A DNA stretch of 41,012 nt from IMG/VR virus record IMGVR_UViG_3300037070_000655, positions 1 through 41,012 of that record, one strand, 5' to 3'. The notes under the pieces are model-generated. The model saw only the letters and a list, made by a program, of their open reading frames with translations, searched no databases and had not been told where the DNA came from. Shown here in pieces: positions 21,785 through 39,185 of the stretch. Both the position numbers and the translations under genes were made by a program. Source of the DNA: a virus. Lineage: Duplodnaviria; Caudoviricetes. Position 1 is the first letter of the stretch. Each line of letters begins with the position of its first letter.

Positions 21785-23442
21785 TGGTACGCAGCGTCGG
21801 CGGCTCAGCCGCAGAAGGAATCGAGTCCGGCTTCAGCATGGGGCTGAAGATGGATCAGATCGGCGAAGAGCGCCGACGCACAAACCTGCGCGAGACAGAG
21901 ATGCACGCCGCTGGCGCGCGTGCGCAGGAAGAGATCGAGCTTCGTAAAAAGCGTGACGAGCGTGACGAGCGCAGGCTCGCTGATGCCGAGAAGCGTGATG
22001 CACGGCAGACTGCGTCCACGATGTTGGGCGCTCGTCAAAAGGAGATCATCGAAGCGCAGCGCGCCCGCCAAACCGCAGGGCTCCCGGTCGACGACGACTC
22101 CGTCAAGGAGTACGGCGCCAACGCTGAGCAGTTGGGCCGCATCAAGCAGGATGCCCTGGACTTCTGGTCGCGTGCACAGACGGGTCAGACCGATCTGGCG
22201 ACAGCCAACCCGAAGGATCTGTACACGCACCTCGTTGCGGCAACCGGCATGCGCCCCGAGGAACTGCAACTGGTGCCGCAGCACATCGCAGATGTGCAAG
22301 CGGGGATGGAGACTGGCAACCAGGGCCTGCTGCTCAAAGGTGTCAACGGCGTGATGGCGCCGCGCCTGCGCAAGGGCGTGGGCCAGCCGAGCCCGCACGG
22401 CGGCACGATCACGCGCAAGGAAGTCATCGGGCTGGACCCGGCGCGCGATGCCAACGGTGTCGACCACCCCGACAAGTTCATCCCGCGGCTGCGCGTCTAC
22501 GTGAAGATGCAAGACGGCAGCGAGAAGTATTACGACGCGCCCGCCACCGAGGGTGGCGGCACCGACCCCAATGACAAGGTCACTGCTGTCAACATGGGCA
22601 ACGCGATGGAGTTCATGGGCCAGATGGGCACGCTGGCCACGACGATGCAGCACCCGGTTCTGGCGAGCAAGCTCGCCGAGGGCGGCAAGCAACTGAGCAA
22701 GCAGGAGCAGAAGTACCTCGACGAACTCACTGCACTCAGCAAGCCGACGAAGGTCGAGACGACCGAGAACGTGCGGATCCCCGCTGATGGCGGCGAGACG
22801 CGTCGCTACACGAAGGACTCAACAGGTAAGGTGACCAAAAGTGAAACTATTAAGCACCCTGCGAGGACTTTTCGCCCGCCTAGTGGCGGCGCTGCGGTCG
22901 GCGTACTCAAAACTAAGCTCGAAGCGCTCGACGAAGAGTTGACCGAGAGCCTGGAGAACGCTGAGACCCAGGAAGAGAAAGACGCACTCAACGCCCAATA
23001 CAAGGAAGATCGCCGTGCGGTGATCGCCGGCATCAAGCCGAAGACCGGTGGCGCTGGTGCCAACAAAACCCCAAGCAACGCTGAACAGAACTCCGCTGTG
23101 AATGGTGCAGTGGAGATCGCCGCTGGCAAGCTTGGGCTGACCTACGAGAAGCTGACAGGCACCTACAAGAACGCCGATGGCACGTCAGCCACTCCGGAAC
23201 AGAAAGCGAAACTATCAGCGGCTCGTGCGGCTGCGACCGTGGCGGTACGCGACGCGTCGGCAGGCGAAGGAAACAAGCGCGTTCCTGGCGCCAAGCTCAA
23301 TGAGATCGCCACGACCGCGGTTGGCAGCGCTGCTGCCAAGTCGAAGTACGAGAAGAACAAGGTCTACACCAACGCCAAGGGTGAACGCGCCACATTCGGT
23401 GGTGTGGATGAGCAAGGCAAGAACATCTGGCTGGCACCGTAA
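21784..23442 (+). CDS. Internal virion or ejectosome protein (552 aa)
   Basis: TAATG coupling at both ends; coiled-coil N-terminus; C-terminal YTNAKGERATFGGVDEQG motif. Confidence 0.7.
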   Translation: MVRSVGGSAAEGIESGFSMGLKMDQIGEERRRTNLRETEMHAAGARAQEEIELRKKRDERDERRLADAEKRDARQTASTMLGARQKEIIEAQRARQTAGLPVDDDSVKEYGANAEQLGRIKQDALDFWSRAQTGQTDLATANPKDLYTHLVAATGMRPEELQLVPQHIADVQAGMETGNQGLLLKGVNGVMAPRLRKGVGQPSPHGGTITRKEVIGLDPARDANGVDHPDKFIPRLRVYVKMQDGSEKYYDAPATEGGGTDPNDKVTAVNMGNAMEFMGQMGTLATTMQHPVLASKLAEGGKQLSKQEQKYLDELTALSKPTKVETTENVRIPADGGETRRYTKDSTGKVTKSETIKHPARTFRPPSGGAAVGVLKTKLEALDEELTESLENAETQEEKDALNAQYKEDRRAVIAGIKPKTGGAGANKTPSNAEQNSAVNGAVEIAAGKLGLTYEKLTGTYKNADGTSATPEQKAKLSAARAAATVAVRDASAGEGNKRVPGAKLNEIATTAVGSAAAKSKYEKNKVYTNAKGERATFGGVDEQGKNIWLAP

Positions 23443-26400
23443 TGGCAGGCGAACGCATCAGCTTCGACGAGACCGAGGTCAAGCCCATCGCGGGCCGCGT
23501 CGACTTCGACGAGACGGACGTCCAGCCGATCAAGCAGATCGGCCACGTCGAGAGTGCACTGCGTGTAGTGGGCGACTCGGCGCGCAAGGGATTGCAGATG
23601 TGGGACGCTGCAGCCACCACGTTGGCGTCGGTGTTCAGCGAGAACGAAGCTGAGCGCGTGGCCAAGATGGGCATGGAGCGCGAGGCAGCGCTACGTGCCA
23701 AGGGCTTCCAGGGCGAGCAACCGCGCGAGCAGTTCAGTACCCCCGGCACGATCGTCGGTGGGGTGGCAAGCATCCCCTTCGAGATTGCTGGCGGCATGGG
23801 TGCGCAGCACGGGCTGGAGCGCGGCCTGGAGATCGAGAGCCGTGGTGGCACCCGCGCAGAAGCGATGCGCGGTGCAGCGGTGACTGGTGCGGTCCGCGGT
23901 GCGCTGAATCTGCTCCCCGTGAAAGCTGGTGGCGCTGTCGGCAAGGCTGTCGAAGGCAAGGTTGGCAGCGTGGTGGGTGGCGCGGCAACCGGTGGCGGGA
24001 TCGCCGCTGGCGGCGGCATCGTTGGCCGCGCGCTCGAAGACGCTGCGCTGCCCGAAGGCAAGCAGTTCGAGGATCTGAAGCAGCCCAACGACATGAACAC
24101 CATCGCGCTCGATGCAGCGATGGGCGCTGCGTTCGGTGGTGGATCCGGCGCCATGTCAGCGCGCACGACGCGCAAGAAAACGAAAGCCGCTGCCGAAGCC
24201 AAGGCGAACGAATTCCCCGCAGACAAGTTCGAGGACATGGGCGACGGCAACTACCGTGCGCCCAACGGCGCCATCGTCACCAAGGATATGTGGGACTCCA
24301 ACAGTCCGAAGGTGCGCGAGGGCTGGATGGAAGAGGCACCCAAGCCTCCTGGCGAGCCCAAGCTGCAGGAAGAGATCGAGCGGCTGCGCGAAGAGCATCC
24401 GACCGGTCCTGTGGCCACTGTCGTCAACGAGGTGACCAAGCAGCGCGAGAAGGTGGCCAAGACCAAGTCCGACGCTGCTGAACTGCGTAAGGCAGCCGAG
24501 CAGACCACGGACGCTGAACTGAAGAAGGCGCTTAACGCACGAGCCGAGAAGATCGACCCGAGCGAGAAGATTCCTGTCGGCGAGGTCAAGCAGGGTCAAC
24601 CGAAGATCGAGGCAGAGGCACCGAAGAAGATCCCCGAGGGCGAGGTCAAGGAAGGCCAGCCCGAGATCAAGACCGAGAAGGCCGAGCCGATCCCCAAGGG
24701 CGAAGTGATCGAAGAGAAGATCCCCGTCGGTGAGACCGACGAGGTGCCTGACGTCGGCGGCAAGATCCCCGTTGGTGAAGCCAAGGAGATCACACGCTCG
24801 GGTGTCGAGCCCACCGATGAACCGAAGCCGGGGTCGATCCCCAAGGGCGAGACCAAGGAACTCTACATCCCACCGGAGAAACGCAATGCCGCTGATCAAG
24901 TCCCCAAGCAAGAAAGCCTTCAGTCAAAACGTGTCGAAGGAGATGAAAGCGGGCAAGCCCCAGAAGCAGGCGGTGGCGATCGCGTACTCGACACAACGTC
25001 GAAGCCAGGGACGGAAGCGGTAGCTCGCGACTGGGGCACCACGTCCGCTGAAGCGGCGCAGAAAATCCGCGATCTGAAGACCAAGGGCGACATCACTGCG
25101 ATCGATGAAGCGAAGATGCTCAGCATCGCCGACAAGCACAAGAGCGATCCGAACCTGCGCACCACGAAGCTCAACAACTTCATGACGGATCGCGGCCAGC
25201 CGATCCCACCACGCACGACGAAGAAGCCTGCGGGTCCAGACCCAGCCGAAGCACCGGAGATCCCAGGCAAGGGCAAGTCGGCCGACATCGATGACGACAT
25301 CGCGTTCGATCCCAACGACCCGAAGTCATTGACGTTCCCCAAGATCGAGGCGTCGATGATCGACGCGTCGCAGCGTGAGACCGAGCGCAAGGCTGTCTAC
25401 AAGAGCACGCCGCGCGCTGACGATGGTCTGCGCATCGTCGGCAAGGACGACCGTGGCATCACCCAGGTTCGCACGGCGCTCAAGGAAGGCATGCGCGACG
25501 GCAGCGTCGACAAAGACGGTGGTGAGCTAGCGCTGTGGGCGCTGGAGCGCAATCCGAATCTTGCGCGTGGGCTGAAGCTGCGATCGACCAAGGACGAAGG
25601 TCCGGGCCGCGGCATGTACAACAACGCCACGCGCATCATCGACCTGTTCAAGCACAACGATCGCAAGACTGGGGCGCACGAGATCCTGCATCACAGCGAA
25701 CGCATGATGCCCGAGATCGTGCAAACCGGGATCCGTCGTGAGTGGAAGCGCGCGTTGAGCAAAGCGGTAGCTGAAGCCAAGACCCCAGTCGAGCGACAGG
25801 CGCTGAAAGACATCCAGGCATCGGCATTCCGTGGCGATGCCAACGCACGCAAGCGCGTGATGGACGCGATGATCGGCGACGAGAACAACCCTGCCGTCAT
25901 CGACAAGTACAAGTTCTATCACCTGATGAACCCCAGCGAGTTCTGGGCGGTGAACGCAGCGAACATCATGCACGAGCGCCACATTGCACGCGGCTCGTGG
26001 CGCAGCCAAGCCAAGCGCTGGCTGAAGGAACTGGTCGAGAAGGCCAAAGGCATCGTGGGCATTCGCTCGGAGGCACCGCTGCTCAAGGCGCTGGATGAAT
26101 TGCTGGACCCGAAGAAAGTGCGCGGTGAACGCAGTGGCGCGCGTGCACTGAGTGAAGGTGGTGGCCGCGCACCTGTGAAGGTGCCGCGCGACTTTCAGGA
26201 TCCAGACGACGGCTTGAAGAAGTTCAGCAAGAACCTCGGTGATCGAGTCAAAGCTGAAGTCGAGTACATGAAGTTGCGGTCACGTCAACATGAGTGGGCC
26301 TACAACGTCGGTGATGTGTTCCTGTCGACGAAGACGGGAAAGACCTACAAGATCACTGGTCGTACGTTCATGCCGCACGGTCCGATCAAGAACAAGGACT

Positions 26401-29400
26401 ACCAGCCAACCTACTTCTACGAAGGTGGTAACTCGAAGGGCACGATGCGCGAGAAGGCGCTTCGCGAGTCGACGACGATGAAGAATCTCACGACGCCGAC
26501 GATGCTCGACCCCAACGACCCGAATATCTCAGCAGCGCGAAAACAAACGGAGACACCTGAGTTCAAGCGGTGGTTCGGTGACAGCAAGGTGGTCGACGCG
26601 CAGGGCAAGCCGCTGGTGGTGTATCACGGTAGCGGCAAGCGATTCACGGAGTTCTCTCCCGACAAGCAGGGCGCACAGACCGACCAAGGCTACCTTGGCG
26701 CTGGCTTCTACTTCGGGAGTCGTCAACACGCCGGCATGTACGCCAACATGCCGATGCACCACGCTAAGAACGCAGCCGATGATGCCAACTGGCGTGGCGA
26801 TCCTTTCATTCCGATTGGTCAACGAAGTGCGTTGTACCCGGTTAACCTGTCGATCAAGAAACCACTCGTGCTCAAAGAGCGCCGGGATCCTGACACCCCG
26901 AACCGAACGCTCGATCGCGAGAAACACATCCGCGATGCGTTGAAGTTGCCACGCACGGCAAGCGCCAAGGAAGTCACTGCCGCGGCAAAGAGAGCAGGCC
27001 ACGATGGCGTGATCTTCGAGTACGAGAAAGGTGATCCGGACTCACCGTTCGGGCTCGATCGAGAGTTCGTTGCGTTTGAACCAACGCAAGTGAAAAGCGC
27101 CATCGGCAACCGCGGCACGTTCGATCCCAACGATCCGAACATCTCGCTTGCCGTCGGCCCAGGCAAGCCGATGAAGCGCACGCTGCCTGAAGAGACCGAC
27201 TTCCAGAAAGTCGAACGCGCGCTGTTCGATCGCTTCAACCGCGTGACGACGCTGCAGAAGACCGAGGCACCGAAGAAGGAAGGCGCCAACATCTATCTGG
27301 CCGACCAGTTGTTCCAAGGTCGTGCGCAGCACCGCGGCGACGTGCTGGAGCGTGACTTCGTCAAGCCGCTGGGCAAGGATCTCGAAGCTGCCAAGAAGCT
27401 CGGACTCAAGGTCACCGACGCCGACGACTACCTGATGGCGCTGCACGCACCAGAGCGCAACCGCGCGATCGCGGCGATCAACCCGAAGATGCAGGACGGT
27501 GGCTCGGGCCTGACGAACAAGCAGGCGCAAAAGATCATCGACGGTTTCAGCCCCGAGCAGCGCAAGGCGCTGGACGCGATCGCCAAGCGCGTGCACGACA
27601 TGCACCGCAAGAAGCTCAACGACATGGTCGACGACGGGTTGATTACCGCCGACGCTCGCGACGCGCTGAACCGCAAGTTCAAGAACTACGTGCCGCTGAA
27701 GACGATCGATGAAGAGGAAGCCTTCACTGGCATCGGCCAGGGCTACTCGATGCGCGCCACCGACATCAAGGAAGCGCTGGGTCGTAGCAGCAAGGCAGGC
27801 TCGCCGGTCGCCGCCAGCATGATGGATGCCGCACGCTCGATCGTGCGTGGCGAGAAGGCGCGTGTCGACCGCTCGATCTGGGAGTACGCGCAGGACAAGG
27901 CGGCGCACGACTTCATCAAGCCTTACGACCCCAACAAGCCGCCACCCGAGGTGACGAAGCAGGCCAAGGGACCGGACGGTCAGGTCAAGAAGGTCGTGGA
28001 TCCGAACAAGGTCCGCGACATGACGATCGATCTCGTGGTCGATGGCCAGCAGCAGAAGATCTTCGTGCCCGACCAACTGCTGCGTGACCAGATCCGCAAG
28101 CTGGCCACCGTCAACGATCCTGGCAAGGTGCTTGGCGCGATCGGCAAGGTGACCAGCGGCATCGGTCGCATGCTCACCGAATTCAACCCTGCGTTCACGT
28201 TGCCCAACGCGGTGCGCGACTCGATCACCATCGGCATGCGCGCGAAGGCGCATGGTCTGAGCCCCGCCAAGGTGGTGGGCGGGATCCCCGAGTCGTGGGG
28301 CGAGATCATCAGCTACAAACGTGGCGCCAACACACCGGGCGCCAAGATGTACGAAGAATTCCTCAGTGCTGGCGCCAAGACAGGCGCGTACGGCGTGACC
28401 GACGTGACGCAGACGATGCGCCGGCTCGAACGCATGGGTGCGCAGATCGGCGACAAGCGCTACGAGACCAACGCTCTGCGTCGCAAGGGTGGACAGGTGC
28501 TGCGCACCGCTGCGCAAGCGATGTCGGGCTTCAACGAGATCTTCGAGTACGCAGGCCGCTTCTCCGCGTTCAAGGAAGCACGTGCTGCTGGCAAGTCCGT
28601 GAAGGAGTCAGCCGCGATCGCCAAGGAGATCTCGGTCAACTTCAACCGCAGCGGTGAGCACACCCGCTGGATGAACTCGCTGTTCGTGTTCGCCAATGCG
28701 GCGCTGCAGGGCCTGCGCAACAGCGCGGTCTACGCTGCCAAGAGCAAGGCTGTGCGCCACGCGATGCTGGGCACCGTGGGCGTCGGCGCGATGGCGCAGA
28801 TGTGGAACGAGTTGATGGGTGGCATCAACGAAGACACAGGTGAGCCCAAGGCCAACATGCAGAACGACGCGATGGCCGACAAGAACCTGATGCTGATGTG
28901 GCCAGGGTCTGACAAGGGCATCAAGATCCCGCTGCCGCCTGAATACTCGTGGCTGTATGCGATGGGCCGGCGCGGCTACCGTGCGTTCTCGCAGGGCCAC
29001 TCGAAGAAAGAAGCCGCAGGCATCGCAGGCAACCTGCTCGATGCCGTGCTGCCCGTGCGACTGCCCGACACTGACAGCCACGTGGGCGCTGCTGCGAAGG
29101 CGCTGGTGTTCACGCCAGTCGTGCCGTTCGCTGATTTGCTCGGTGACAACAAGAACTTCTTCGGTCAGGACATCGTGCCTGATCGACACGACGACATCAG
29201 TCCCGCACCGTATGTCAAGTCCAGTCGCACGACCACATCCGATATCGCCAAGGGGATCTCGGAAGGCATGAACACGATCACTGGCGGCGACAAGATTCGG
29301 CCCGGTCTGTCAGAGAAGGCGCTAGGACCGTTGGTGTCACCCGAAGGCATCGAGCACATCACCGGCTTCTACACAGGCGGGATCGGTCAGCTTGTGATGC

Positions 29401-29768
29401 AATCGAAGAACTTGGCCAAGGCGGCGTCGAAGGGTGATCCCGTCGACATCAACAAGATCCCGATCGCCAATCGTTTCCTCTTCGAGGAACCCAAGAGTTA
29501 CACAAGTCGGCGTTACAAAGAGTTGCGACCCGAGTTCGAGTACGCGAAGGACTACATCAAAGCCGACCAAGAGAACAAGGTCGACCCGAAAGTCAGGCGT
29601 GCACTCGACGAATTCGTTGGCGCTGAGAAAGAATTGCGCGTTTTGTTCAAGCAATTGAAGACCGCTGCCTCTGAAAACAATGATGCCGAGAAGAAGGAAA
29701 TCGAGCAAAATATCAAGCGTGCACAGTCGCGGGTCATCCGCTCTTACTACGGGCAGCCACAGCAATGA
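23442..29768 (+). CDS. Giant polyvalent internal virion protein (HExxH zincin-like, ART-PolyVal-like ADP-ribosyltransferase, LPD38-like C-terminus)
   Basis: HEILH at 25677; FKRWFGDSKVVD..GKPLVVYHGS...GFYF...GHDGV...EFVAFEPTQVKSAIGNRGTF; AKEISVNFNRSG..NSLFVFANAALQG; last gene of the ejection cluster. Confidence 0.85.
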   Translation: MAGERISFDETEVKPIAGRVDFDETDVQPIKQIGHVESALRVVGDSARKGLQMWDAAATTLASVFSENEAERVAKMGMEREAALRAKGFQGEQPREQFSTPGTIVGGVASIPFEIAGGMGAQHGLERGLEIESRGGTRAEAMRGAAVTGAVRGALNLLPVKAGGAVGKAVEGKVGSVVGGAATGGGIAAGGGIVGRALEDAALPEGKQFEDLKQPNDMNTIALDAAMGAAFGGGSGAMSARTTRKKTKAAAEAKANEFPADKFEDMGDGNYRAPNGAIVTKDMWDSNSPKVREGWMEEAPKPPGEPKLQEEIERLREEHPTGPVATVVNEVTKQREKVAKTKSDAAELRKAAEQTTDAELKKALNARAEKIDPSEKIPVGEVKQGQPKIEAEAPKKIPEGEVKEGQPEIKTEKAEPIPKGEVIEEKIPVGETDEVPDVGGKIPVGEAKEITRSGVEPTDEPKPGSIPKGETKELYIPPEKRNAADQVPKQESLQSKRVEGDESGQAPEAGGGDRVLDTTSKPGTEAVARDWGTTSAEAAQKIRDLKTKGDITAIDEAKMLSIADKHKSDPNLRTTKLNNFMTDRGQPIPPRTTKKPAGPDPAEAPEIPGKGKSADIDDDIAFDPNDPKSLTFPKIEASMIDASQRETERKAVYKSTPRADDGLRIVGKDDRGITQVRTALKEGMRDGSVDKDGGELALWALERNPNLARGLKLRSTKDEGPGRGMYNNATRIIDLFKHNDRKTGAHEILHHSERMMPEIVQTGIRREWKRALSKAVAEAKTPVERQALKDIQASAFRGDANARKRVMDAMIGDENNPAVIDKYKFYHLMNPSEFWAVNAANIMHERHIARGSWRSQAKRWLKELVEKAKGIVGIRSEAPLLKALDELLDPKKVRGERSGARALSEGGGRAPVKVPRDFQDPDDGLKKFSKNLGDRVKAEVEYMKLRSRQHEWAYNVGDVFLSTKTGKTYKITGRTFMPHGPIKNKDYQPTYFYEGGNSKGTMREKALRESTTMKNLTTPTMLDPNDPNISAARKQTETPEFKRWFGDSKVVDAQGKPLVVYHGSGKRFTEFSPDKQGAQTDQGYLGAGFYFGSRQHAGMYANMPMHHAKNAADDANWRGDPFIPIGQRSALYPVNLSIKKPLVLKERRDPDTPNRTLDREKHIRDALKLPRTASAKEVTAAAKRAGHDGVIFEYEKGDPDSPFGLDREFVAFEPTQVKSAIGNRGTFDPNDPNISLAVGPGKPMKRTLPEETDFQKVERALFDRFNRVTTLQKTEAPKKEGANIYLADQLFQGRAQHRGDVLERDFVKPLGKDLEAAKKLGLKVTDADDYLMALHAPERNRAIAAINPKMQDGGSGLTNKQAQKIIDGFSPEQRKALDAIAKRVHDMHRKKLNDMVDDGLITADARDALNRKFKNYVPLKTIDEEEAFTGIGQGYSMRATDIKEALGRSSKAGSPVAASMMDAARSIVRGEKARVDRSIWEYAQDKAAHDFIKPYDPNKPPPEVTKQAKGPDGQVKKVVDPNKVRDMTIDLVVDGQQQKIFVPDQLLRDQIRKLATVNDPGKVLGAIGKVTSGIGRMLTEFNPAFTLPNAVRDSITIGMRAKAHGLSPAKVVGGIPESWGEIISYKRGANTPGAKMYEEFLSAGAKTGAYGVTDVTQTMRRLERMGAQIGDKRYETNALRRKGGQVLRTAAQAMSGFNEIFEYAGRFSAFKEARAAGKSVKESAAIAKEISVNFNRSGEHTRWMNSLFVFANAALQGLRNSAVYAAKSKAVRHAMLGTVGVGAMAQMWNELMGGINEDTGEPKANMQNDAMADKNLMLMWPGSDKGIKIPLPPEYSWLYAMGRRGYRAFSQGHSKKEAAGIAGNLLDAVLPVRLPDTDSHVGAAAKALVFTPVVPFADLLGDNKNFFGQDIVPDRHDDISPAPYVKSSRTTTSDIAKGISEGMNTITGGDKIRPGLSEKALGPLVSPEGIEHITGFYTGGIGQLVMQSKNLAKAASKGDPVDINKIPIANRFLFEEPKSYTSRRYKELRPEFEYAKDYIKADQENKVDPKVRRALDEFVGAEKELRVLFKQLKTAASENNDAEKKEIEQNIKRAQSRVIRSYYGQPQQ
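24886..25023 (+). CDS. Nested +1-frame small basic protein (45 aa)
   Basis: SD GGAGA at 24875, ATG 24886; MPLIKSPSKKAFSQNVSKEMKAGKPQKQAVAIAYSTQRRSQGRKR; GC3 bias follows this frame; resembles the widespread phage MPL..S.K..S.N...E..AGKPQKQAVAIA family. Confidence 0.75.
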   Translation: MPLIKSPSKKAFSQNVSKEMKAGKPQKQAVAIAYSTQRRSQGRKR

Positions 29769-31664: not shown

Positions 31665-32306
31665 ATGATCACGCTGGCTCAACTCATCGCATGCGGCATC
31701 GGCCCCACGCCCGCCCGTGCGTTTCTCGATCACTTGAACACCACGATCGAACGCTTCGAGATCGCCAGCCCCGCGATGTTCATCGCCCAGGCCGCGCACG
31801 AGTCGGTGGGATTCACCAAGCTCGAAGAGGATCTCTACTACAAGGATCCGGTGCGGCTGTCGCGTGACATCTTCCGCAGCGCGTTCGACGTTGACCACGA
31901 CAAGCTGATCGACAACGAAGAGATCGAGTTCGCAAAATTCTACACACGCAACCCTCAGGCGCTGGCCAACCGGGCGTACGCCGACCGCCTGGGCAACGGC
32001 GACGAAGCCAGCGGTGATGGCTGGAAGTACCGGGGCCGCGGGATCTTCCAACTGACTGGCCGCAACAACTACACCGCAGCCGCAGCGGCTCTGAGCGCCG
32101 ATCTGGTGGACAACCCGGACCTAGTGGCGCAACCCGAGATGGCCTGCATCACGGCTGGCTGGTTCTGGGCCAGCAATGGGCTGAATCAGTTCGGCGAAAG
32201 TCTCACGGTCGAGATGGCCACTCGCAAGATCAACGGTCCCCGCCTGCTCCACCTCGACGAGCGCCGTGTGGCCTACATCGAGGCGCAGCACGCGCTGGCG
32301 GCATGA
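31665..32306 (+). CDS. Endolysin, glycoside hydrolase family 19 (chitinase-like)
   Basis: FIAQAAHES..F..LEE, ANRAYADRLGNG..SGDGWKYRGRGIFQLTGRNNY, TRKING. Confidence 0.92.
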   Translation: MITLAQLIACGIGPTPARAFLDHLNTTIERFEIASPAMFIAQAAHESVGFTKLEEDLYYKDPVRLSRDIFRSAFDVDHDKLIDNEEIEFAKFYTRNPQALANRAYADRLGNGDEASGDGWKYRGRGIFQLTGRNNYTAAAAALSADLVDNPDLVAQPEMACITAGWFWASNGLNQFGESLTVEMATRKINGPRLLHLDERRVAYIEAQHALAA

Positions 32307-32818
32307 TCTTCGGTCTGATTCCCCTACGGGTGTGGCTCGCGCTGGGTGCCGTGGCAGCCGCTGGGCTGCTCCTGTGGGGCTGGGGACTCCACCGCTACAA
32401 CACAGGCGTCAAGAACACCACAGACAAGTACGAGGCTGCTGCGGCTATACAGCGCGAGGTGAACGCGAAGGCGACGTTCCGCGCGGTCGAGAACACCGCC
32501 AAAGAAGTCGAGGCATTCACTAAGGTCGAGGTGATCAGGGAGACCGTTCATGTCAAAGACAAGGCTGCTGTTGATGCTGTGTGGCGCTATGCTGACCGGT
32601 TGCGCGACGAGCTTGCCCGTCGTAGTGCCGCCCCCGTTGAAGCCACCAGTGCCTGCGCAACTGAACATCGACGACTCCGAGCGGCTGAGAGCATTGTCGG
32701 AGAGTACGTCGAAGTTGTTGCTACGTGCGCAGGAGTTGCAGTCGAAGGTCGAGACTTGGCTCAAGGACTGAGCAACAAGCTCGATCTCTGGAAGGGCTAC
32801 GTCAAGTCCCTACCTTGA
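32303..32818 (+). CDS. Rz: i-spanin (Rz-like)
   Basis: N-terminal TM plus periplasmic helix with Cys; follows the endolysin and contains an embedded lipoprotein gene. Confidence 0.8.
   Translation: MIFGLIPLRVWLALGAVAAAGLLLWGWGLHRYNTGVKNTTDKYEAAAAIQREVNAKATFRAVENTAKEVEAFTKVEVIRETVHVKDKAAVDAVWRYADRLRDELARRSAAPVEATSACATEHRRLRAAESIVGEYVEVVATCAGVAVEGRDLAQGLSNKLDLWKGYVKSLP
32550..32771 (+). CDS. Rz1: o-spanin lipoprotein (Rz1-like), embedded in the +1 frame
   Basis: SD GGGAG; lipobox LTG-C; Pro-rich VVPPPLKPPVP. Confidence 0.85.
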   Translation: MSKTRLLLMLCGAMLTGCATSLPVVVPPPLKPPVPAQLNIDDSERLRALSESTSKLLLRAQELQSKVETWLKD

Positions 32819-34273: not shown

Positions 34274-34582
34274 TCAACCATCCGAGAAAGCGTCGATCAC
34301 CGCGAAGGTTTCACGATCGTTGTAAATGCGAGCGCCAAGCATGATTTTCTTTTTGTAGAACTCGATCCACTGTTCGAGTGTTGGTTTCATAAGCTGGCTG
34401 GGAGCACGACCCGTGCACACGTCGTCGCACTCATCAGTGCGGCAGACCACCCGCCAGTGACCGTCGAAGTTGATCTCCAGATGTTTACCCCACCACGCCA
34501 TCGTGCCGATCCGGTACTCGGCGCGATCCATGATGCCGTGCGCTTCCTTCACGGAGACATCGACGTAGGCTGGCACAGTCAC
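34274..34582 (-). CDS. Hypothetical protein (102 aa)
   Basis: GTGA coupling at 34582; fills the gap between the FkbM and GT-A genes. Confidence 0.55.
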   Translation of the reverse strand: MTVPAYVDVSVKEAHGIMDRAEYRIGTMAWWGKHLEINFDGHWRVVCRTDECDDVCTGRAPSQLMKPTLEQWIEFYKKKIMLGARIYNDRETFAVIDAFSDG

Positions 34583-35271
34583 GCCGGCACCATCACGTAG
34601 TCGCCAGCCAACTCCTGCACGACGCGGTAGTTGTGCGCCTGCTCCAGATATTGGATCGCGCCCTTGGGCTGCAGGCCGAACTTGGTGGCCATGTCGCGCT
34701 TCTGCTCGACGATGATCGTGGGGCGCCACTGGCGGATGGTGTTTTCCGCGCCGCGGGCGATGTTTTCCTCGTAGCCCTCGGCGTCGAGCTTGATGAAGTC
34801 GACGTCGATGTACCCGAAGCTGTCGATGGTCAGCATCTCGACATCGTCGGACTTGGTCGCGGTGTGACCATCGATCGTGCGCCGCGAGACAGCGTCACTC
34901 AGATAGCTGTCACCCGAAGCGTAGGTGTTGCTGAGCATGCTGACTCGACTGAACTCTTTGCCCAGCGCGCACTCGTTGAGGCTGTGCTTGTTGCTGTCGT
35001 AGTCAACATTCAGCAGCCAGCACTCGCGCAAGCGCGCGACGGGCTCGAAGCACTCGACACGGTCGAAGCGTTTGTCCAAGTGCATCGTCCACAGACCGAT
35101 GTGCGAACCCTGCTCGATGCAGCGCCGGAAACTCTTGCAGTGGTGCAGCGCGGCTTCGATCTTGGCGTACTGGTACGTGCCCTTGCCGTTGACCAGTTGT
35201 CCGTTGCGGCCCATCCACATGACAAGCTCTTGCTCTTCGGTCGGCATCCAGATGCCTTGGTACTGTTTCAT
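34579..35271 (-). CDS. FkbM-family SAM-dependent O-methyltransferase
   Basis: IEQGSHIGLW, VECFEP, CALG, IDSF..IDVDFIKLDAEGYE, PTIIVE. Confidence 0.88.
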   Translation of the reverse strand: MKQYQGIWMPTEEQELVMWMGRNGQLVNGKGTYQYAKIEAALHHCKSFRRCIEQGSHIGLWTMHLDKRFDRVECFEPVARLRECWLLNVDYDSNKHSLNECALGKEFSRVSMLSNTYASGDSYLSDAVSRRTIDGHTATKSDDVEMLTIDSFGYIDVDFIKLDAEGYEENIARGAENTIRQWRPTIIVEQKRDMATKFGLQPKGAIQYLEQAHNYRVVQELAGDYVMVPA

Positions 35272-38527: not shown

Positions 38528-38556
38528 ATTATAGCAAACACTAACTAACTTGTCAA
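38528..38556 (-). promoter_or_regulatory. Consensus sigma70 promoter with extended -10
   Basis: Minus strand TTGACA-agttagttagtgtttgc (17 nt)-TATAAT with TGn before the -10. Confidence 0.92.
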
Positions 38557-39185
38557 GTACCCCTGTTTTTGCCTAACTCGATTTCCAGGGTACTCATCGG
38601 CCAGCACGACAGCGCGCTGCCCGGTGTGCAGTTCACAACCTCCAGACCCAATCGCGCCGCGTCCTTGGCCATCGTCGCGAACTTGTGGATCCACTCACCG
38701 AACGTCTGCCCCTGCACCAGCGGCTTCGGGTGGTCGCCGTGCCAGTGCTTCTCCGCGTTCGGTCCCAGCTTCATGTCGTAGCCGGTGAGCAGCACGCGAC
38801 GCGACCCGAAAAGGTACGCGAGGTTGAGTGCCTGCGCTGCGCTGTTGCCGTTGATATGCAGGTACTGCGTGCCGAGCCCCGACTTGTTGACGCCCTTGAT
38901 GCGGTGGGCGCCGTAGCGCTCAGCGGCTGAGTGGTCGCACGTCCACTTCTCACCTTTGAACGTACGCGCCACCTCTTGGTAGTTGAACTTCCACCAGAGC
39001 ATGTCGCCTGCATAGAGCACATCGGCGTAGGGAAACAGCCGGTGCGTGGTGTTCACCACGACCAGCACGAACGGTTTGCCCTGCGCTCGCGCCTTGTGGA
39101 TCGGCAGCGCAGTGTCCTGCATGCTCGGACCGCTGGCGGCGATAACGACGGTGCGGTCTTTCCACCGCTGTGGGATGAGGCTCAT
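38553..39185 (-). CDS. Maf/DUF115 (MptE-like) or sialyltransferase-fold putative transferase
   Basis: IAASGPS, VVNTT..FPYADVLYAGD, GNSAAQALNLAYLFGSRRVLLTGYDM, HWHGDH, VVNCTPGSAL. Confidence 0.62.
   Translation of the reverse strand: MSLIPQRWKDRTVVIAASGPSMQDTALPIHKARAQGKPFVLVVVNTTHRLFPYADVLYAGDMLWWKFNYQEVARTFKGEKWTCDHSAAERYGAHRIKGVNKSGLGTQYLHINGNSAAQALNLAYLFGSRRVLLTGYDMKLGPNAEKHWHGDHPKPLVQGQTFGEWIHKFATMAKDAARLGLEVVNCTPGSALSCWPMSTLEIELGKNRGT

Follow-up and report, generated by a model that had tools for sequence, protein, structure and literature searches.

A phrog_2423 gene nested out of frame in the linker of a giant phage virion protein gene, and its probable origin by capture

The 41,012-base virus record IMGVR_UViG_3300037070_000655 (Duplodnaviria; Caudoviricetes), analysed here over its full length and called the window, is estimated to be 72% complete and holds a phage late region with terminase, portal, capsid, internal virion protein, tail, and lysis genes. 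The sequencing runs listed as containing the window are mostly soil metagenomes, and no RNA run is among them. Inside one giant gene of this region lies a short second reading frame, which an earlier note described as an overprinted gene captured within a disordered linker and encoding a nucleic-acid-binding or DNA-condensing micro-protein. The locus raises the questions of whether the small frame is a gene, which of the two overlapping readings is the older, and what the small protein does. We consider it probable, taking all the evidence together, that a gene of the phrog_2423 family was captured in the linker and is kept by selection on the small frame, that it is likely translated, and that its product is likely packed in the head and binds DNA.

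The nested gene and its giant host

The features of the locus are listed below.

23442 to 29768, plus strand: host gene encoding a 2108-aa polyvalent virion protein, likely an ejection protein (by position and by likeness to phi24B gp47)
24537 to 25043, plus strand: predicted disordered host linker (about aa 366-534; pLDDT, FoldIndex) with IPxGE-type repeats, which includes the nested gene
24875 to 24879, plus strand: Shine-Dalgarno motif GGAGA of the nested gene, 6 nt 5' of the ATG
24886 to 25023, plus strand: nested gene encoding a 45-aa basic phrog_2423 protein, in the +1 frame relative to the host gene, with predicted helices at residues 9-21 and 26-44
25020 to 25023, plus strand: nested stop TAG (25021-25023), formed by the host codon GTA plus the next G; GTA is rare (5 of 121 host Val codons)
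25677 to 25691, plus strand: HExxH motif (host aa 746-750) resembling that of MPTases, within a helical domain; no Pfam match
26595 to 27122, plus strand: ART-PolyVal domain (host aa 1052-1227; PF18760, E 1.3e-22)
28866 to 29465, plus strand: LPD38 domain (host aa 1809-2008; PF18857, E 3.9e-25)

The GGAGA motif, the ATG at 24886 and the 45-aa +1 frame with 12 lysines or arginines and one acidic residue are all present in the sequence as the earlier note had it, and the net charge of the peptide is +11. The frame lies wholly inside the open frame 23442-29768 on the same strand with its own start signal and stop (TAG 25021-25023), and it is the sole ORF of at least 25 codons with a Shine-Dalgarno motif and an ATG in either off-frame of the giant gene. 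A shift in the codon endings of the host frame had also been claimed and was recovered: over the nested ORF, the third-position GC of the host frame drops to 0.46 (median 0.78), which is the minimum for the giant gene, and no 46-codon window outside the overlap reaches such a low value. The nested peptide matches phrog_2423 with an E-value of 4.6e-20 (residues 1-44 on profile positions 1-44 of 52). On a family profile that was built with the window ORF among its members, the real nested ORF scores 96 bits, and the off-frames of 200 codon-shuffled host genes used as a control score at most 10.8 bits. The nested ORF is thus far beyond chance expectation.

A 616-nt contig from another run (X4, possibly of the same campaign) covers 24796-25411 with zero differences, and five further distinct phage sequences show identical nesting; together these rule out an assembly chimera. 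A programmed -1 frameshift joining the peptide to the C-terminal part of the host protein was also rejected, as an X-XXY-YYZ heptamer occurs in one of the six nested copies and not in the window. RNA folding around the nested start is weak in the window and not distinctive over 5 copies, and a DNA pattern scan returned only 2 stretches, both known already.

The LPD38 and ART-PolyVal domains of the host both score above the Pfam cut-offs, and the gene comes after the capsid and internal virion genes. With at least two domains of polyvalent type and a late-gene context, the host gene encodes a phage polyvalent protein. It shares LPD38, ART-PolyVal, the HExxH motif and the late virion gene position with the polyvalent proteins with LPD38, ART and MPTase domains described in PMC5512222. 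The HExxH motif is kept in relatives, and no Pfam MPTase match was obtained for the window protein. The LPD38 protein gp47 of phage phi24B is present in virions and has been proposed to be an ejection protein (bioRxiv 10.64898/2026.04.10.717836); by analogy, the giant protein is likely an ejection protein. The accretion treated in PMC5512222 is of in-frame domains and not of out-of-frame genes, and the word "overlapping" is absent from its main text.

The disorder that the earlier note assigned to the linker is borne out by prediction: in a model based on a 3-row alignment, pLDDT is below 50 with no secondary structure over model residues 77-245, pLDDT is mostly 70-90 in the HExxH domain of the same model, and the FoldIndex of the nested stretch read in the host frame is -0.17. 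The IPxGE-type repeat units lie 5' of the nested gene at 24560-24870 and are kept in many relatives. The linker site also takes domain-sized in-frame inserts, including a small helical one at 25024-25330 of the window, an ART domain in protein P0159, and unnamed inserts in other proteins (P0146, P0160, P0170).

The only cultured relatives found for the host region are three Erwinia phages, which match the HExxH domain alone, and the searches turned up no cultured phage that carries the nested form. The only relatives from genome collections are L192 and L193. The latter, a contig of a Burkholderiales MAG, carries the nested gene, which hints at a betaproteobacterial host; the contig may be a binned phage. 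Elsewhere in the window, 38553-39185 and 34579-35271 (minus strand) encode a sialyltransferase-like protein (phrog_4603) and a methyltransferase (phrog_8156), which may serve to modify DNA or the surface.

Selection on the nested frame and the phrog_2423 family

Six distinct nested DNA copies (the window, L014, L005, L095, L180 and L193) were compared over 40 codons in 15 pairs. For the nested frame the uncorrected pN/pS is 0.08-0.44, whereas the host frame gives 1.47-5.21, and amino acid identity among the six copies is 57-90% for the nested reading as against 35-62% for the host reading. At nested codon positions 1, 2 and 3, respectively, 19, 11 and 28 of 40 columns are variable. All six copies have GGAG 5' of the ATG, and in five of them the stop TAG needs a rare host codon (5/121, 1/34, 4/72, 1/26 and 5/117 uses); the sixth copy, L014, encodes 77 aa and ends on a common host codon. 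Strain variants in contigs of other runs follow the same pattern. Each of the six variants within the nested ORF is synonymous for the small protein and alters the host residue; of the 32 variants outside it, 28 fall at host third positions (Fisher p 8e-5 for the contrast, with the six variants being linked and mostly from one contig at a depth below 5). The variant contig diverges 3 nt past the nested stop. Selection follows the small frame, as had been suspected from codon endings.

These results bear on whether the gene is a fossil, that is, a gene fragment absorbed as linker whose nested frame is no longer translated. No promoter-like site was found within 24300-25400, which would fit such a fossil. 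A pN/pS well below 1 in the nested frame alone, present-day strain variants that are nested-silent, and a Shine-Dalgarno motif, ATG and rare-codon stop that stay while synonymous sites differ at 31-72% all speak against it, and we regard a fossil as very improbable. Judging from the sequence, the nested ORF is very probably a real, expressed gene.

The earlier note likened the product to a widespread stand-alone phage micro-protein family (GKPQKQAVAIA motif). Such a family exists and is phrog_2423, which is of unknown function in PHROGs v4 and includes Pa193 gp21, F8 ORF019, RSB1 ORF47 and VEc3 gp56. The match to the nested peptide is over the full length, with the same basic two-helix fold. 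A search with the peptide gave 1722 homologues among 1757 candidates. Family matches occur in 494 of 50,697 annotated phage records, including those of Pbunavirus, Obolenskvirus, Vectrevirus, Bcep781 and RSB1, and in 4 of the 64 IMG/VR parts a scan confirmed 533 of 600 stretches, from which the family is estimated to occur in ~13,000 viral stretches. When the best 80 family loci were fetched, 78 were outside any long ORF and two (L005 and L014) were nested like the window. The annotated members examined are stand-alone or N-terminally fused, whereas the window copy is wholly inside another gene and out of frame. Divergent partial matches lie near or apart from giant host genes (L158:4864-4941 and G013:C1:1478-1543).

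Nine positions (P2, S6, A11, N15, E19, G23, A31, I32 and A33) are invariant in 89 rows that include the window peptide. The AF2 model of the peptide is a helix-turn-helix with a pLDDT of 90. The peptide matches no Pfam family, and no specific solved homologue was found in the PDB by Foldseek, VIA-align or sequence profile; the best structural Z, 5.9, is in the range of generic helical hairpins. In the ESM Atlas the matches were to clusters without names, with DUF6496 as a lead for 15% of the members of one of them. Homodimer prediction gave a score of 0.02 against a mark of 0.42.

Recurrence, exchange and origin of the nesting

Recurrence in other polyvalent genes had been suggested, and it was examined by a codon-level scan that tests host proteins for the capacity to encode a family member in +1, with best-case back-translation for proteins without DNA. 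The scores are bimodal: 29 of 120 host homologues score 106-148 and the remainder at most 44. These 29 include the window's own protein, and 14 of them form one cluster of near-copies. All 29 fall in one 63-row clade of a quickly built HExxH-domain tree (119 of the 120 rows) and require 11 gains or losses, at least eight of which are forced by strong branches. Additionally, a profile of the host-frame shadow of the nested gene, itself built from shadows, gave 55 matches among 1.84 billion representatives, and five of these were profile-building proteins. Of the other 50, all except one pass the codon scan (105-143 versus a second-best score of at most 36), and one of the passing proteins is the host of L095. 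Forty of the 49 have at least 300 aa and 33 have at least 900 aa; the nine under 300 aa may be spurious frames over stand-alone genes. For these proteins the analysis covered the protein sequence, and their nested frames are putative.

When the shadow is masked, 45 large hosts fall into 15 BLAST groups (of 22, 7 and 4 members, plus 12 singletons). Pfam matches were obtained in 9 of 30 shadow hosts scanned and include LPD38, SLT with SNF2 helicase, InPase and RadC. The out-of-frame shadow is present in 29 of the 120 host homologues and in another 40 large proteins, and the recurrence extends beyond LPD38 proteins. No shadow was found in the +2 frame or later, where the best scores are 36 (120 proteins) and 31 (96 long proteins).

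The gene is not universal among the relatives of this phage. In 50 related records (covering 50 of 79 loci), five have one nested copy, and no strong stand-alone copy was found; there is one weak partial match (E 3e-4). Ten of 12 near-complete relatives have no family copy at all, so the gene is dispensable here and is not an essential condensing protein. It is an accessory gene in this phage group.

The position itself can hold different genes. L185 and L187/L188 have closely similar sequences on both flanks and a common ribosome-binding motif, ATG and TAG. The slot in L185 holds a 45-aa family member, and the slot in L187/L188 holds an unrelated 38-aa basic ORF; the length difference of 21 nt leaves the host frame intact. 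The content of the slot has been exchanged between near-identical hosts. The additional nested ORFs are as follows.

L187:3801-3917, L188:3801-3917, L177:530-658 and L178:1568-1690, also in L186 and L190: second basic +1 ORF family, 38-42 aa, in the same slot
L177:389-529 and L178:1427-1567: further 46-aa +1 ORF directly 5' of the one from the second family, so that a pair of nested ORFs lies in tandem
L114:6471-6620 (also L116 and L130), L148:5949-6095, L160:6636-6803, L146:9294-9491 and L165:6619-6732: ORFs in more distant giant hosts, no PHROG match

The shadow of the second family is found in 11 of 120 hosts (nine strong, two weak) and never together with phrog_2423. This family has no PHROG match, two database homologues, and no stand-alone copy among the loci examined. 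The ORFs in the more distant giant hosts are Shine-Dalgarno-led, mostly basic +1 ORFs of 37-65 aa.

How the nesting arose can be approached from the distribution of the two frames. Most viral overlaps are said to arise by overprinting, in which the new frame has no homologues, and the wider-spread frame of an overlapping pair is taken to be the ancestral one (PMC8227390). By this distribution criterion the small gene is the ancestral frame, as its distribution is far wider than that of the host reading. A gene overprinted de novo should have a narrower distribution and lack homologues; the nested gene has 1722 of them, and all but two of the 80 fetched loci are non-nested. Like the de novo overprinted genes treated in PMC8227390, the arrangement is a same-strand internal +1 overlap with one frame predicted to be disordered. 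It differs from them in that the nested protein is widespread and the disordered, fast-changing reading is that of the host.

The stand-alone copies also show what the host-type (-1) reading of the family looks like outside a host. It is open in 5 of 78 stand-alone copies and has stops in the other 73, with a mean of 2.6 stops. Third-position T is 0-5% in nested copies versus 11% in 21 GC-matched stand-alone copies, and the net charge of the host frame is -3 to +1 in nested copies versus a mean of +2.2 in GC-matched stand-alone ones (p 0.009). A basic gene might be expected to read as acidic in the -1 frame by default, but this was found to be false (mean net charge +3.3 in stand-alone copies), so the host frame appears to be tuned as well.

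Classical overprinting, in which the ORF was born de novo in the linker and later escaped as a stand-alone family, has to be weighed against these observations. In most internal overlaps of viruses it is the +1 frame that is new (PMC8227390), and the second family at the slot is without a stand-alone copy in the loci examined. In addition, at two stand-alone loci (L017:2570-2670 and L028:3930-4030) an upstream ORF runs into the same -1 frame, and the 18-nt leader is that of nested L005, making them possible intermediates or escapees. These points favor overprinting, but they stand against the spread of a family that is estimated at ~13,000 viral stretches and is so rarely nested, the stops in the host-type frame of nearly all stand-alone copies, and a shadow shared by 15 host groups that BLAST does not connect anywhere else in their sequences. 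We consider overprinting quite improbable, and capture rather than de novo origin to be strongly favored. The earlier description of the gene as captured fits, but "overprinted" has the polarity reversed, since the small frame is old, widespread and normally stand-alone and the host reading is new.

In close relatives without the nested gene the two flanks are joined directly, and others hold domain-sized inserts at this point; therefore, the linker site tolerates insertions. Insertion into a tolerant linker would be the simplest route of capture, and read-through from an upstream gene may be an alternative route to nesting. As to whether there were single or multiple captures, a 114-nt tree needs three changes, and one clade is not rejected (p-AU 0.42).

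The Rz/Rz1 pair of lambda is a known system in which a small gene likewise lies wholly in the +1 frame of a larger one and in which the family also occurs in separated form (PMC6139136). That paper derives the embedded spanin genes from separated ones and found no spanin family in which embedded and separated members occur together; phrog_2423, unlike those spanin families, has both. The nested peptide differs from Rz1 in having no cysteine, in not being a lipoprotein and in having no lysis role, and the Rz-like gene of the window is elsewhere (32303-32818). Furthermore, the host here is a 2108-aa virion protein of which the nested gene covers 2%, there are many unlinked hosts with exchanged slot content, and no functional partnership of the nested and host products is known. 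Literature listings searched for overprinting, for phage genes that are nested or embedded and for microproteins, with few subscription papers covered, contained no account of such an arrangement.

Possible roles of the small protein

The family homologue Pa193 gp21 (L174:19739-19945), a 68-aa form from a Pseudomonas myovirus that was assigned by sequence, is among the virion proteins detected by LC-MS/MS with a Mascot score of 288 (PMC11456595). No second virion proteome with a family member was found in the literature searched. The gene neighborhood of the family was tabulated with related loci over-counted: among 77 loci, the next downstream ORF of at least 60 aa encodes a portal protein in 20 and GroES in 6, and the next upstream ORF of at least 60 aa encodes TerL in 6, portal in 2 and a phrog_10346-like protein in 15 of 78 loci. 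The family domain also forms the N-terminus of the head maturation protease of Obolenskvirus phage IME-AB2 and likewise of a BFVD row. Because of the head-gene neighbors, the protease fusion and the presence of Pa193 gp21 in virions, the peptide is likely to sit inside the head.

Three roles can be ranked: a DNA partner comes first, a scaffold or cargo tag second, and an injected effector third. DNA would be the most likely common partner because the protein is conserved across phages with very different capsids and has a net charge of +11. A DNA-associated head protein is our leading candidate on the basis of charge, fold, gene neighborhood and the homologue in virions, at somewhat less than an even chance.

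The second role, which is possible and less probable, accepts the gene as real and captured and makes the peptide a capsid-assembly factor, either a scaffold-like hairpin that attaches to the portal, the maturation protease or the inside of the capsid wall, or a tag that takes fused cargo into the prohead. This would agree with the portal, TerL and GroES genes as neighbors and with the N-terminal position of the domain in its fusions to the head protease, to a 781-aa protein encoded before a head protease, and to a phrog_10346-like domain (4 of 11 long family members tested). The nine positions invariant in 89 homologues, including an A-I-A helix face, point the same way. It is opposed by the ~50% identity that the family holds across myoviruses, T7-like podoviruses and portal-type podoviruses, the capsid proteins of which are very different. 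Scaffold capsid-binding domains are helix-turn-helix motifs (PMC11456595), which is in favor of this role; against it, the hairpin inside the Pa193 capsid is assigned to gp24, which has no match to the family profile. In a comparison with scaffold hairpins of the P22 gp8 and Pa193 gp24 type, a helix-turn-helix is predicted for the peptide, and structural searches gave generic matches only.

Several observations concern these proteins individually. The 781-aa protein (L043:3260-5605) starts with the family domain and contains many repeated short K/Q-D motifs, maybe protease sites. The C-terminal extension of Pa193 gp21 resembles, by eye, the gp24 capsid-binding helix (residues 286-326), and an unassigned trimeric 16-residue density has been described beneath the Pa193 hexons (PMC11456595).

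In the third role, the peptide would be packaged together with the DNA or the giant protein, enter the new host cell with it on injection and act there, for instance by protecting DNA against restriction or by attaching to a conserved protein of the host. We judge this to be unlikely. Polyvalent proteins, the class of the host gene, are proposed to act just after invasion (PMC5512222). Patchy presence and exchanged slot content are expected of conflict genes, and a homologue is present in virions. The stand-alone copies, however, reside in head modules, and the family is strongly conserved across distant phage groups. Most counter-defence proteins are not conserved in this way.

Returning to the favored reading of a captured gene with a DNA-associated product, the course of events would be as follows. 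A complete and old phrog_2423 gene would have moved from a stand-alone position into the insertion-tolerant linker, where synonymous changes would have removed the host-frame stops and turned the host reading acidic. The late mRNA is likely the template from which the nested gene is translated, with ribosomes initiating internally. The product, a basic helix-turn-helix, is likely packed in the head and would bind DNA there as an accessory protein.

More broadly, and tentatively, giant ejection-protein genes may carry a hidden gene layer in which small basic genes are captured, recoded and swapped from start to stop in a linker slot while the host frame stays intact. The peptides would be co-expressed so that the giant protein or the DNA takes them along on packaging and ejection, and they would act as chaperones, as shields for DNA or in counter-defence. 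If this is true, the slot would be a general route to overlapping genes by the capture of old genes instead of by overprinting. At this locus, the nested partner appears to be the old, widespread virion gene and the host reading the new one, with many different hosts and evidence of exchange, and this offers a second route to overlapping genes that can be put to the test. A further consequence is that many environmental phages encode a conserved virion microprotein that annotation overlooks and that some of the "conserved linker motifs" of giant phage proteins are the shadows of hidden genes.
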